Assembly: GCA_964016885.1 (NCBI GenBank)
Contig: OZ024742.1
Location: 47,554,001 to 47,618,000 of the forward strand
DNA from: Eledone cirrhosa
Taxonomy: Eukaryota
Reading direction: 5' to 3'
Length of the DNA: 64,000 bases
The position numbers and the translations under genes were made by a program. Below the pieces are notes generated by a model, which was not told the DNA's origin, did no database searches, and worked only from the letters and a program-made list of their open reading frames with translations. Numbering within the stretch: the stretch's first letter is position 1; the number at the start of each line of letters is the position of its first letter. Of this stretch, positions 43,507 through 62,999 are shown one piece after another.

Positions 43507-43786
43507 ATACTTTGGGAGGGTCATGTTGCCAATAAGAAACACACGCACCAGTTGCTTTCACTTCAATTTATTATAATAAGTTTATAAATTTATAAATTTC
43601 TGGTTGGTTGGTTGGTTCCACAACCAGATAGTTGTTTATATATAAACAACTATCTGGTTGTGGAACCAACCAACCAACCAACCAGAAATTTATAGATTTA
43701 TAAATTTATTATAATATATTGAAGTGAAAGCAACTGGTGCGTGTGTTTCTTATTGGCAACATGACCCTCCCAAAGTATAACAATAT
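43499..43786. repeat. Near-perfect ~290-bp palindrome centred at 43640/43641
   Basis: The centre reads gttgtttata|tataaacaac. Arms differ by a few substitutions and one TGGT unit. Confidence 0.95.
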
Positions 43787-47743: not shown

Positions 47744-47825
47744 ACTCCAACTAATTAGTTTCTGTAATGGAATAAATATAGTTACACAATGTAACTATCG
47801 AGAATTCATTACGTCATCAGGGAGT
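47744..47825 (-). ncRNA. Type I hammerhead ribozyme with extended stem II
   Basis: ACTCC-CTGATGA-c-GTAATG...ATAGTTACA-ttg-TGTAACTAT...CATTAC-a-GAAA-CTAATTAG-TT-GGAGT. Confidence 0.82.
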
Positions 47826-56929: not shown

Positions 56930-57250
56930 CTGAATGGTAGTATCGGAAGAGGGTCGGACGCCATGCTTTGACGCATAGAGTTACGGCCGTTGCCATTCTG
57001 AGTTCAAATCCCGCCGAGGTTAACATTACCTTTCATCATAAAATAAAGTACCAGTAATGCACTGAGTAATTGCTGGCGTTGTGCCAAAAGTAGAAACCAT
57101 TATTATTTAGCTTACGTCGCTCTACGGTCTGAGTTCAAATCATGCCGAGGTTAAGTTTGCCTTTCATCCTTAAAGGGTCGATAAAATAAAGTACCTGTAA
57201 TACACTGGGACAATTGCTGGCCTTGTGCCAAAAGTAGAAACAATTATTAT
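56930..57250 (+). mobile_element. Two tandem SINE copies
   Basis: tgagttcaaatc..gccgaggttaa...gtgccaaaagtagaaac-attattatt occurs twice. Confidence 0.85.
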
Positions 57251-58144
57251 TTCGCTTACAATTCTGACAGTTATTGTGAATATGTGCAATAATATTCGAA
57301 TTGTGAGGAGATGTTTGGATAATGTATTAAATATATGATTTTAGTGCAATTTCAAGGAGAAAATTGTTGAAACTAAGGACATTCGTTAAATTATATGTAT
57401 AAAATAAAACGAGTGCATCAGGAAATTTGAATATGACGCAACGGCTACCATTTTATTTATCAAATAATGGGTTTCATTTAGTAGGATTAGACTGAACTCA
57501 TACTGAATGACAAGGAATCCTACACAATGTTAGTTAATATTCAAAAATCAATAAATAGGCCGAAGATTATTATTAAACCTACAAATATTAAGGAAACGTA
57601 TCATATTAGATGGTGTGATTGGGAGAGTATAATATACAACGATTCAACTCTGATATTGTGTTAATCCTATATCACGTTTATCGCGAATCTAATGCCATAC
57701 ATTTATATTATGGTATATATTGCACGCACGGTTAACCTAATAACTGTTGAAATCTTGAGCTTGATATGATATGTTTAATGTAACAATTCTGACCGAAGTT
57801 AGAATATTTCTGAGTTGAAGATTGTCATTAACTCAGGCAGGATTTCCCGTGATACCAAGTCATGCGGATGATTCTGTGAATATAGAGTTTGCTATAGTGT
57901 TATTCAGCATTAATATCTGACAGTAATTAATATACTGGTTTGCAATTAAAATAAATTCCCGTAAGCCTTATGCAAGAGATTAAATGTGATCCCTAGTCAC
58001 GAATGTAAACGAATTTAATATATCTTCAAATATTCCTTCAGTTTAAAATACGGATATTTTAAAGCATGCTTAAATTCAGCTCAGACAGCGCCAACATAGA
58101 ATTTCTTGCAATATTTACGTCTCGATAAAATCAAGATTAAAGCG

Positions 58145-58290: not shown

Positions 58291-59241
58291 CTCTCTATAT
58301 CACTTCCTCACTCTCCCTTTCTCTCATCTGCTGTGTCTAAACATGGAGAAGAGATGGGTTCTGCCAGGTTAAAAATGGTCAAGATCCACCATAATTCAAT
58401 ACATTGCCCATATGACACCACCAGGCGTTACGGGTACATATATACATCATTACCAAACCCAGAAGCATTGACTTAATACTCCCAAACGAGCGTGGAGTAA
58501 TTTATTCTGAATATAGGAGATACATGGAACAGAACATGACTACTCCATTATCATATCAGCTATAGTTTCTAGATTTTAGATTCGAAATATTTCCCTCTGT
58601 ATACAAGTCAGCCATGCTTACTATGATCATCCTTTTGCTTGTATTGCAATCGTCCACCGATAGGAATAAGCCAACTTAATCAGTGCTACTTTAACATGGA
58701 TATGTCTATTATAATTACGCTTCAAAACCAAAGCACCTATCTTAGTTCGCAAAAAGAAAACAATTGATTTTGTAACGAGGAGTACTATAAGCTTTACCCT
58801 ATTAAATATTATTGTAAGAAACAACGACGACTTTTCGATAATTTGAATCTCCAATCGTCAGCAGTCCTCCTATTTTGAAATACAAACAGCTTTAATAAAA
58901 AATGTTCTACTACTATTGTGTTGATTATTCATTTTCTCGACAAAAATACAAAGTGACCCCCCCCCCCCACCAGAAACATATATACACACCACACATACAC
59001 ACACATAATATAAATATATTTACTTATACATACATACATAAATATATATATATAAATATAAATTCAGCGAGAATCGTATTTCGGCTAGTAGAAGAAGCGA
59101 AACGAAACGCAAAATCGTAGAAATATTGCCAAGCGCTCCAATAGTTAAGAAAACTAGAGCTAAACAATATGTTAAAATGCCATACAAACTTAAATGTGGT
59201 CAAGAAGGCATATATACATATATATATATATATATAAAAGT

Positions 59242-60292
59242 TTACATATATAAAAGTTTACATATATATACATATACGTGTTTTGCAACTGGTCACTTTG
59301 TGGCTCAATGAAAAATTAATAAATTAAATAATCAGAGCTATATATAATAAAACGTGTCTATAGAATCACAAGATAAAATATATACTATTTCCTCTCCCAA
59401 TTAGCATAATTAACTATATAAAAAATCGAATAGACCAGGCTATAAGAATGAGGCTTCTATGAAGAAATCTCCGACAAATAAGAATGAGGCTAGTTTTGGT
59501 TATTTGTCGGAGATTTCTTCATAGAAGCCTCATTCTTATAGCCTGGTCTATTCGATTTTTTATATAGTTAATTATGCTAATTGGGAGAGGAAATAGTATA
59601 TATTTTATATTGTGATTCTATAGACATGTTTTATGATATATAGCTCTGATTATTTAATTTATTAATTTTTCATTGAGCCACAAAGTGACCAGTTGCAAAA
59701 CACATATATGTATATATATGTATATATATATGTAAACTGTTATATGTAATAATATCCCATTAGGTTCAGATACAAATTTGGCTGTATTGTGTTTTGCTTT
59801 CTAGCAAAAATGCCACCAGTCGTAAGCAACTACCACACCCCTTCCAACCTGACGCGACTACGTCACGATTTTTAGCCATTTTGAATGAATTCTTGGCGCG
59901 ATCACTTTGGAAAATTTAGTGTCTAGATAAGAGCGAACTTCCTGATGAATCCGGTGCTCGAGTTTATATAATTATTACATAATTATTGGAAGACTCAAAA
60001 TACGGATGAAACCATGGTAGAGGTATTTAAATGTATACTATTTTCTCCTAGTTTATTTTACACCTAATTCTGTTTAGTTGACTGTATCTGGGTGATTACG
60101 CTGTCGAAATATTCGATAAATATTCCGCTACGGCCGACGCGAAAGGCTAGTTTTGGTTATTTGTCGGAGATTTCTTCATAGAAGCCTCATTCTTATAGCC
60201 TGGTCTATTCGATTTTTTTATATAGTTAATTATGCTAATTGGGATAGGAAATAGTATATATTTTATCTTGTGATTCTATAGACATGTTTTAT

Positions 60293-60300
<8 letters not shown>
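59242..60300 (+). mobile_element. Non-coding hammerhead element (~240-bp inverted head, 657-bp monomer, ~155-bp direct repeat) in (TA)n
   Basis: 59242-59481 is the reverse complement of 59500-59749. 59487-59640 is repeated from 60144. Confidence 0.85.
59937..60024 (+). ncRNA. Type I hammerhead ribozyme with extended stem II and palindromic stem III
   Basis: ACTTC-CTGATGA-ATCCG...GAGTTT..ATAATTAT-tac-ATAATTAT..AGACTC...CGGAT-GAAA-CCATGG-TA-GAGGT. GUA site, cut predicted after 60019. Confidence 0.85.
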
Positions 60301-60342
<42 letters not shown>

Positions 60343-60392
60343 ATAAGGAAAAGCGAAGTAGTTTCAGATGTTCAAGTCCTTTAATAATAATG

Positions 60393-60464
60393 CTGTGATA
60401 TATATTTCAATGACGACACCCGCCACACTGATCTGTGTGCGAGTGTCGTGACATCATCAGACAG
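60393..60464 (-). ncRNA. Type I hammerhead ribozyme (3' repeat)
   Basis: CTGT-CTGATGA-tgtc-ACGACAC-tcgcacacagatcagtgtggcgg-GTGTCGT-catt-GAAA-TATATA-TC-ACAG. Confidence 0.82.
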
Positions 60465-61669
60465 ATGGTTAATAATAAGGTTATGTTTCCGAGGCAATCC
60501 AAATTGAATCGACATGGAAACGGATGAAGTGTGTGCTTTTGGGTTCTTCATCCGTTCCCCTGTGAGTACCAATTCACCCCCACCGGTCTGCGCAGGCACA
60601 TGTCCGAAGGAAGTTGACCATTAGCTACCGCAGATTTCAACGAAATTCGCTTAGTCAGTTCACCCTCTCAGCCAAACAATGGCCCATCTAGGCCTGTACC
60701 ATAGTTTACTGCTACCCATCCCGACTGTGGCAGTCAGCCGAAAGCCAGAGGGGATGGGAGAGTGTTAGTTTTTACAGGTCGCAATACTACATCTCACCTA
60801 GCGTGGACAGTACGACTGACCATCAACTCATAAGAGAAAATAAATTTAATTCTAGGTATCATGGTTTTACATTGGAAGTTATGAGTGAGAGTTGGAAATA
60901 AAAATTAAAATCCTAAATCAAATATCAGAAATTATAAATTAAACAATTAAAAAATTAACAATTAGAAATTAAAAAAACTTTCAAGTGAGGTGAGTAAAAA
61001 AATATAGATTGAAGTGAGTAAATAATATGGAGAGAGATGTTTAAGTAAGAAGTTCAGAGCGGGGTTCTAATGTCTCAGTTACTCTATCCACATATTGAAC
61101 GACGGCGCCGTACATTAGAACGGAGGGTAAACTACAGTATTCAAGGCAGTAGTCAATCTGGTACTCAGTCATAATTTCCATCACATGGAACAAAACCAAA
61201 GAAAAACAGATATAAAGTACACAAAAAAAAGAACCAATAATGAATAAATGCAAAAACACAGAGTACATATATGCAAAATGATCCATATGATTGTCAATCT
61301 GTCAATGTATAGATTGAATTGAGGAGGCTTCTGTTCAAATGCGATTTGGTGCAGGAAAATAGGGGTTTATCTTAGTTTTTGTTTCCGCGTATTTATCCTG
61401 CCGAAAGTTACTATTAGGTCCGTCCAGTATCAGGGGTTTCCATCCCCATGGTAGAGAGAATTTCCAGGGGTAGCTCATGGTTGGTTCCTCTCTTCTCCAC
61501 CATATCGGTTACATCATAGAGCGCTCAACTAATTGGGGCTAAATTATTATGGTAAACATTGATGCAATTCAATTCAAGCACTCAACGTACTCTTTCCACA
61601 TAGGAGTGACAGAGTAAATATCGAATAGGAAAAGCGAAGTAGTTTCAGATGTTCAAGTCCTTTAATAAT

Positions 61670-61743
61670 GCTGTGATATATATTTCAATGACGACACCGG
61701 CCACGCTGTTCTGTGTGCGAGTGTCGTGACATCATCAGACAGC
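61670..61743 (-). ncRNA. Type I hammerhead ribozyme (5' repeat)
   Basis: GCTGT-CTGATGA-tgtc-ACGACAC...GTGTCGT-catt-GAAA-TATATA-TC-ACAGC. AUC site. Confidence 0.84.
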
Positions 61744-61830
61744 TTGTTACATAATAAGGTTATTTACTCCGTCACTCCTATGTGGAAAAAGTAGGTTGAG
61801 TGCTTCAATTGAATTGCATCAATATTTACC

Positions 61831-61904
<74 letters not shown>

Positions 61905-62999
61905 TATTCATTTATTTATAGGTGTCTCAACATATTTGACGAGGCGAATAGTTGACGTCCATATATAGTATTTGAGGTAATCAGGCAAGGTACTCCTAGA
62001 GGCGGACAAATTGGACAATCACGCATGCGAGGAATTGAACCTGCATATTACAGAGAGTGGTGAAGTGCTTCAATCACCATACCGGAATGCGGGCCGGCCA
62101 CCAATTCCATCTTTACTGATATTCTGAATAATTATACAAAGCTGATTGTTTATATTATTATTAACGTTTGAACGTAGTCTCTATAACATGTTTTTACATC
62201 TAACACTATATCCGAATAAACACAATAACCAGACGAAACATCTTTTTAAATTGTTCTAATTACATACGGGATTTAGCAAATAACAAATTGAGAATTTATA
62301 ATGGATTATGAAATGACAAATGATACAAAAAATAGAACGTGTAAACCTTTTATTCAAATAAGAAGTTCAGAGAGAACATCATTGTCCTACGGTGACTTCC
62401 ATTAATATATTAGACCTGAAAGTATTTCATACAATTTCAAACGATATCACGCTGTCTGTGACTAGCAGCAATAAACTCCATACCATACATCTAAAAATAT
62501 ATTTTAGGAAACATGTCTGCAAAATTATCTCATGTTTACAAAATTGTTGCAGAACCTTCTCAAATTAATGTAATGTTGTGAAGAAATTAACACGCAATAG
62601 GATGCTATAGGAAATTAATGTTTCGAAAATGCTTTTATACGTCACTATGGATATGTTTTTATATTGTTTGCATAAAAGAAAAAAAAAAGCTTTTGTCTTC
62701 TAAATCTATATATTTAGTTCATATGATCTTAAAACGTAAATGCGCGTCGCTTAAATATGGAGCTACATATAAAATGTCACTCATAATATTATCTGTATAT
62801 GAAGAAAAGACCCAAGGAAATCATTTTCAATGTATATGTAACCATATATATATGAATATTTAGAGATAAGTAGAGAGTAGCTATTCATTCAAAGATATTA
62901 TTATATGTAAACACGCTTGCTCTCCAGTGTGACCATTTTTATTAAGGATTTGTCGTATTTCCATATCAGGTCTTTACGCTAGGGTTCTAAATACATGTG

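Follow-up and report, generated by a model that had tools for sequence, protein, structure and literature searches.

The insertion in the window

One insertion occupies positions 60341 to 61836 (minus strand) of the window, by which we mean the whole 64,000-nt stretch of DNA that was analysed. BLAST of family copies and their flanks identified it as a non-coding PLE-type element made of 1.1 units and an inverted arm. Along the minus strand it contains an upstream pseudo-LTR copy (61623-61763, unit positions 1-141), a 76-nt tail between two fixed 3' ends (61547-61622), the non-coding body of the unit (60485-61546) and a downstream pseudo-LTR copy (60341-60484), with which the main arm terminates at the short 3' end. 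The inverted arm lies on the plus strand at 61761-61836. It is a second copy of the 76-nt tail that ends at the long 3' end, is 92% complementary to 61545-61620 and overlaps the main arm by 3 nt at the join. The direct repeats (61763-61623, 141 nt, and 60484-60341, 144 nt) are 93% alike, with 5 substitutions and 3 small indels between them.

Microsatellite sequence (TC/TA or TA) adjoins both ends of the insertion. On one flank it is the (TA)n target (61834-61907) and on the other (TA)n plus (AG)n (60293-60342), both strand-neutral. The limits 60341 and 61836 drawn by the first-pass annotation, with a microsatellite beside each, are thus the ends of the insertion. That annotation described a single element with two hammerheads, and its membership of a family, its Penelope-type architecture and the inverted arm at 61761-61836 had gone unseen. 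The refuting case that it named, an unrelated internal insertion, is excluded, because BLAST identifies the interior as the family body.

The element shows no sign of coding capacity. Its longest stop-to-stop frame is 86 aa, 12 of its short frames gave nothing below E 0.2 in Pfam, and tblastn of six PLE proteins against the window gave no match. Rfam, with its hammerhead models, matched nothing in the element at E values up to 1, and ARAGORN found no tRNA in it. Contigs from four sequencing runs (one study, kind unrecorded) aligned to the element in the manner of a many-copy repeat.

The hammerhead motifs

Each pseudo-LTR copy carries a type I hammerhead on the minus strand, hammerhead 1 at 61670-61743 with a predicted cut after 61675 and hammerhead 2 at 60393-60464 with a predicted cut after 60397. 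The CTGATGA core starts at 61738 in the first motif and at 60460 in the second; their AUC triplets end at 61675 and 60397 respectively, a spacing of 1278 nt. The earlier claim of two minus-strand hammerheads in direct repeats of about 140 bp, with cut sites 1278 nt apart, is confirmed by the location of these cores and triplets. The RNA predicted from cut to cut (60397-61674, minus strand) is 1278 nt long with 39% GC. The annotation had this spacing right and did not notice that the element continues past the second cut to a fixed end. Because of this extension, a cut linear 1278-nt RNA is not by itself the template.

In both motifs the core residues C3 U4 G5 A6 N7 G8 A9, G12 A13 A14, A15.1-U16.1 and H17 are present. 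Three helices surround the core and the ends lie in stem I, as in the type I topology. Stem I has 5 bp in hammerhead 1 and, through one substitution, 4 bp in hammerhead 2. The differences between the repeats do spare the core, as had been stated, and one of them breaks the outermost pair of stem I in the 3' hammerhead. The sparing of the core is weak evidence because the differences are so few. Stem II is long and starts with U·U, followed by G·U, U-A, a mismatched C·C in fourth place and then a paired run. Stem III is the palindrome AUAUAUAU and forms only between two molecules.

Position 10.1-11.1, a base pair in the type I hammerhead, is a non-Watson-Crick U10.1·U11.1 in the window family. 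Sister family A has U·U here as well and sister family B has G·U. The U10.1·U11.1 start recurs in other hammerheads of the genome, one of which lies downstream of a coding PLE family. A natural U10.1-U11.1 start is on record and is rated the best-tolerated mismatch (PMC3088659).

We aligned 13 hammerhead sequences from the window family, a divergent subfamily and families A and B. In this set of about four lineages, chosen by motif pattern, both sides change in 10 of 16 base pairs, the palindrome included, and 95% of cells pair as compared to 16-56% in slid controls. The core columns are invariant in the alignment except for N7. Within the window family, variants shared by lineages occur at 6 of 213 sites in the ribozyme and tail as compared to 117 of 1078 sites in the body (p = 6e-5). 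Divergence in the more distant copies is 7.8% in the body, 3.2% in the ribozyme and 2.4% in the tail. Judged from sequence, the hammerhead shows covariation between sister families and is shielded from lineage-level change. The first reading of these motifs as hammerheads with a palindromic stem III, and their comparison with retrozymes, is backed by this covariation and family-level conservation. A core mutation rate of 1.25% against 3.06% was set aside because many loci had been selected by exact core patterns.

Folding calculations gave a cost of the active fold of 6.2 kcal/mol in hammerhead 2 and 3.2 kcal/mol in hammerhead 1. A competing fold beats the active hammerhead fold by 3-6 kcal/mol, and the dimer duplex of the palindrome is weak (-3.2 kcal/mol). 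Metazoan PLE hammerheads are described as having low activity (PMC4209133), and 8 of 9 Xenopus hammerhead dimers were reported without cleavage (10.64898/2026.07.22.740005). The U10.1·U11.1 mismatch together with the modelled competing fold may slow the predicted cleavage further.

The family and its fixed ends

The genome searched comprises 3.0 Gb in 1796 contigs, and its repeats seem to be of octopus type. A 27-nt motif from the ribozyme core has 889 exact matches and its reversed control none, so the motif is not due to chance. A 21-nt motif just downstream of the ribozyme has 1769 exact matches, again with none for the reversed control. The 40 best of 2338 candidates yielded 123 family matches by BLAST, the long ones 90-95% identical. 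We estimate one to two thousand insertions in the genome. For closer study we used 145 de-duplicated insertions, 26 of them drawn from the best BLAST matches and the others from pattern matches, mostly in the first 275 Mb of a single contig, C1.

Unit positions are counted from 61763 (position 1), which places the predicted cut after position 89. The unit is 1278 nt in the window and 1.29-1.32 kb in other copies. Family copies are 5'-truncated, are mostly sited in (TA)n, and terminate at either of two fixed sites, at about 141 or about 217, 76 nt apart. Position 1279 precedes position 1, so the longer copies are partial tandems (pseudo-LTRs), the longest reaching about 1.9 units (loci L004 and L013).

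Two outward ends were found in 68 of the 145 insertions, many of which have an inverted truncated arm. These ends follow a rule. Under strict end detection, all 61 two-ended copies paired a long end with a short end, and 75 loci had one end. Under loose detection, 67 of 68 were long plus short, one was short plus short and none was long plus long; 72 loci had one end and 5 had none. The exception, L137, also conflicts with itself at diagnostic sites and probably represents two events. The window copy conforms, with the short end on its main arm and the long end on its inverted arm. Sister family A obeys the rule in 7 of the 8 two-armed loci of an unbiased set, the eighth being short plus short, and in all 6 loci read from a set chosen for the long end. 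Such strict pairing of long with short points to a single concerted event that used two primers. A limited literature search found no published count of paired long and short PLE ends.

The 76-nt tail between the two ends has few lineage-level changes, and it contains motifs common to the sister families. By analogy with the lizard PLE (PMC11167929), it is likely to be a protein-binding site. The fold of the 191-nt tail region is no better than that of shuffled sequences (z -0.8).

When the stem II pattern was searched with the family's usual form excluded, 11,862 further motifs were found and the control gave 0. They belong mainly to sister families A and B (loci L081-L110 and L271-L290), in which ribozyme, short end, tail and long end follow in the same order and tail motifs are in common. 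No PLE protein match was found within 1.5 kb of L081-L110. The 2026 repeat annotation of Octopus (PMC13282606) does not contain the word "ribozyme". Among the literature found on cephalopod retrozymes, only PMC8557442 surfaced, and no title dealt with such a family. The family may already stand under another name in Repbase, in the PLE lists of PMC8557442 or in the supplements of 10.64898/2026.07.22.740005.

Comparison of repeated parts within insertions

Overlapping parts of the same insertion were compared with each other at subfamily-diagnostic sites in 86 loci. Direct repeats disagreed at 45 of 425 sites, 19 of them from L137, as compared to 36% in 300 random pairings. Inverted arms disagreed at 48 of 601 sites, as compared to 47% in 300 random pairings. 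Rare alleles were shared 18 times between direct repeats and 32 times between inverted arms, where 0.5 was expected. The 22 overlaps of at least 300 nt (L137 left out) held 52 private shared alleles in 15 pairs, dispersed among ordinary differences and not in clean tracts. Since the repeated parts carry the same subfamily and private variants, both arms, like successive rounds, derive from a single template sequence. Each generation thus goes through just one unit, and that unit is copied repeatedly. This signature fits a circular RNA, which would produce it naturally, yet exact template jumps of the reverse transcriptase (RT) fit it too.

The main alternative is a non-autonomous PLE copied from uncleaved linear RNA. 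Tandem rounds and identical arms would then arise when the RT jumps back along one transcript, or would descend from young tandem source loci, and the ribozyme would act at a different step or rarely. Template jumps have been proposed for PLEs (PMC3846280), the lizard PLE mainly uses unprocessed RNA in vitro (PMC11167929), and some loci hold several units and might thus supply linear RNA. The behaviour of variants speaks against it. In 25 multi-round loci, 36 between-round differences had the same direction and 30 the opposite one. Of the former, 15 lie at the short end, where target DNA starts, and without these the counts are 21 and 30. No round-specific variant recurred across these 25 loci. 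Variants occurring in both rounds, none of them specific to one, imply a one-unit bottleneck in each generation. Jumps would also need exact register each time, and the tandem junctions have no recurrent scar position. The conservation and covariation of the ribozyme also count against this alternative. We regard the linear template as rather unlikely.

The agreement within loci could also come from DNA. Gene conversion or unequal crossover might homogenise a satellite-like repeat that carries a relic ribozyme, as core mutations in individual copies would allow. Duplication at the DNA level does occur in the family. An inverted array of ten ribozymes (G000:C1:130,881,900-130,893,900; L141 and L142) has units only 0.2-2.1% apart; it grew by duplication of units and dimers and contains about three distinct rounds in one arm. 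We had considered this array as proof of rolling-circle copying and rejected it, because most of its units are later DNA duplicates. We rate homogenisation as very improbable. Private shared alleles extend across whole overlaps and stand near unshared differences, divergence within loci is still 3-4%, and the fixed 3' ends, the 5' truncation and the end rule require an RNA-templated mechanism. In a separate observation, one arm of the array skips from unit position 95 to 315.

It is scarcely credible that the family is a circular RNA replicon of viroid-like or deltavirus-like type that became integrated, since hammerheads spaced by the unit length, the lack of an ORF and a circular fold somewhat stabler than shuffled sequences (z -2.7, 20 shuffles) are outweighed by PLE-type ends, by the lack of an opposite-strand hammerhead pattern in the element (other ribozyme classes being covered by Rfam only) and by a yield of 2 candidate stem II pattern matches in 2.9 million viral contigs. 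The first-pass annotation had proposed folding the 1278-nt monomer for a rod-like or a branched structure. The predicted fold is branched and not rod-like, with 23 hairpin loops and 62% of bases paired when circular, at 39% GC.

The cut site in genomic copies

We sampled 99 matches to the downstream 21-nt motif in positional order along contig C1. The cut site was read through in 89 of them, 6 stopped within 14 nt of it and 4 were unclear because of SINEs. Neighbouring windows of like size had 0-4 stops, and the stops near the cut fall at an AT-rich microhomology site. For both reasons we do not count the 6 stops as a pile-up, and 5' junctions do not clearly accumulate at the cut. None of the 99 matches stops 8-12 nt upstream of the core. 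The arm lengths obtained from this sample are lower bounds, because end-walking halted early at subfamily indels in several matches. Of 17 copies without C17, 14 are point mutants and 3 are junctions near the cut, two of these ambiguous.

Since copies read through the cut, the template was intact across it, either religated or uncleaved. The read-through is thus also in line with the linear alternative. Insertions start 52 or 128 nt past the cut, so a cut linear 1278-nt RNA would give only tiny copies.

Proposed mechanism

Our preferred reading, to which we give a probability of about 0.6, is a non-coding dispersed 1.3-kb element with Penelope-type ends that is likely copied in trans by a PLE protein, its RNA likely being read round repeatedly. 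The parts of this reading differ in strength. That the element is a non-autonomous PLE is very likely. For the template we lean slightly towards a circular RNA, a form put forward for PLEs in 2014 (PMC4209133). The excisable, circular monomer that the first-pass annotation suggested has indirect support from the single-template signature of multi-round copies.

We postulate the following steps. A copy carrying two hammerheads would be transcribed. The ribozymes, likely held together in a dimer by the AUAUAUAU palindrome and likely acting slowly, would free the unit, which would be ligated to a circle. A PLE protein, likely as a dimer, would bind the tail and nick both strands of a (TA)n target. 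Two cDNAs would then be primed, one on each side of the 76-nt tail. Both would extend back through the ribozyme and stop variably, sometimes after more than one round, and microhomology would join them.

Parts of this scheme have precedents in the lizard PLE (PMC11167929). There, internal RT starts flank the tail, both strands are extended and a dimer is predicted; the start site is alike for both strands. In vitro, cleavage was not needed for insertion, and reads ending at the cut are described as absent.

In its full form the proposal is that one protein dimer grips one hammerhead-made circular RNA at the tail and, at the two edges of that tail, primes two cDNAs on opposite (TA)n strands, which would make the family a fossil record of PLE insertion. 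We offer this version tentatively and rate it at somewhat under even chances. If it is true, a single mechanism accounts for the pseudo-LTRs, the inverted arms and the one-ended tail together. The window element and its sister families, with more than 12,000 related hammerheads in a single genome, would then be parasites of PLEs that take the form of circular RNAs on the kilobase scale and exceed in size the animal retrozymes of the literature that we examined.

Candidate helper elements

The genome contains 10,595 GIY-YIG candidates. Long ORFs with RT and GIY-YIG are present, several of which end at (TA)n. Several RT and GIY-YIG frames have a CX2-5CxxC linker, which is described as a mark of the Neptune and Nematis clades (PMC8557442). 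Among 50 GIY-YIG loci (of 150 scored), none had sequence in common with the element, nested family copies aside. Visual comparison of autonomous 3' ends with the tail gave no clear match among those listed. PLE protein matches occur in 9 loci of the window family and 2 of family A and look like neighbours.

One coding PLE family is young, with an open frame of 938 codons (L061 4809-7622; also L062, L066, L069 and L072). Its terminal repeat contains a hammerhead with a U3-A8 core variant.

Comparison with known elements

The window family resembles endonuclease-bearing PLEs (Neptune/Nematis, Penelope/Poseidon) and their derivatives, such as MRC1 of Chlamydomonas, in its partial-tandem pseudo-LTR (PMC8557442). 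It also shares with them the inverted 5'-truncated arm, the 5' truncation and the AT-microsatellite target (PMC8557442, PMC3846280). In both, the repeat contains a type I hammerhead with a long helix II, a short helix I and a palindromic helix III (PMC8557442). Autonomous PLEs encode RT and GIY-YIG, whereas the window element has no ORF or ORF trace. The tail is 76 nt in this family as compared to 30-40 nt in known PLEs (PMC8557442). The sources describe the PLE tail as "optional" or often one-ended, whereas the ends of the window family are almost strictly long plus short.

Metazoan non-LTR retrozymes, like this family, are non-coding, have one type I hammerhead per unit, a GC content below 45% (39% here) and head-to-tail repeats; for both, a circular RNA intermediate and dependence on PLEs have been proposed (PMC7229834; 10.64898/2026.07.22.740005). 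Their ribozymes are of the canonical 6-bp/4-bp type and they form arrays, whereas the window family has a PLE-type ribozyme and mostly dispersed partial copies, and is known from the genome alone. Size also separates them. The unit here is 1.28-1.32 kb, whereas retrozyme monomers are short, at about 150-450 nt. The earlier remark that the unit exceeds typical animal retrozymes holds, at 1278 nt against about 200-400 nt (PMC7229834). The 2026 retrozyme survey lists monomers of up to 972 bp and used a tandem finder limited to a period of 1000 (10.64898/2026.07.22.740005). Retrozyme-like units in animals now exceed the 1-kb ceiling of that last survey.

Plant LTR retrozymes also have a non-coding body between ribozyme-bearing repeats and are of a similar size order, with circles of 600-1000 nt (PMC4918200, PMC5680766). 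They have type III hammerheads, true LTRs, PBS/PPT, 4-bp target duplications and reliance on Gypsy (10.64898/2026.07.22.740005), whereas the window family has type I hammerheads, PLE ends and variable partial tandems. Our verdict is a non-autonomous PLE or a large non-LTR retrozyme; the broad definition of the latter fits, its size does not. The kind of element is already known, and the new parts are the unit size and the arm rule.

The role of hammerheads in PLEs and the origin of their tandem and inverted ends are debated questions on which this family bears. It sets countable limits for models, which have to account for long plus short ends, one template sequence, arms of more than one unit and a selected ribozyme that is read through. 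The family further provides an RNA substrate, short and protein-free, on which PLE models can be tested.

Neighbouring and other repeats

An unrelated non-coding PLE-type family lies 40 bp away, at window positions 59229-60300, with a 657-nt unit and an inverted arm. It carries one type I hammerhead at about 59937-60024 on the plus strand, in which stem III reads ACCAUGGU and the site is GUA. This family has 3105 candidates in the genome, the best copies being 93-98% identical, and a tandem copy of it is located 3 kb beyond the ten-ribozyme array. A hammerhead-like motif with a palindromic stem III and a 5-bp stem I was also seen at window position 47820 on the minus strand. Elsewhere in the genome, tandem hammerhead repeats have periods near 490 and 460 nt (L071 7818-9901 and L062 6710-7619), and several of them begin stem II with U·U.

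In 32 of 219 ribozyme copies a SINE has inserted, independently, at the (ATT)3 that directly follows the cut site. The sites are at unit positions 95-101 (e.g. L005 2900-3091 and L022 2579-2983), and the 5' ends and target duplications vary. The SINE likely prefers (ATT)n targets, and the same SINE seems to lie at window positions 57000-57260. At 43538-43747 the window contains a long AT-rich hairpin that scores below threshold with microRNA models; a similar sequence in an unrelated flank (L074) suggests that it is probably a MITE-like repeat.
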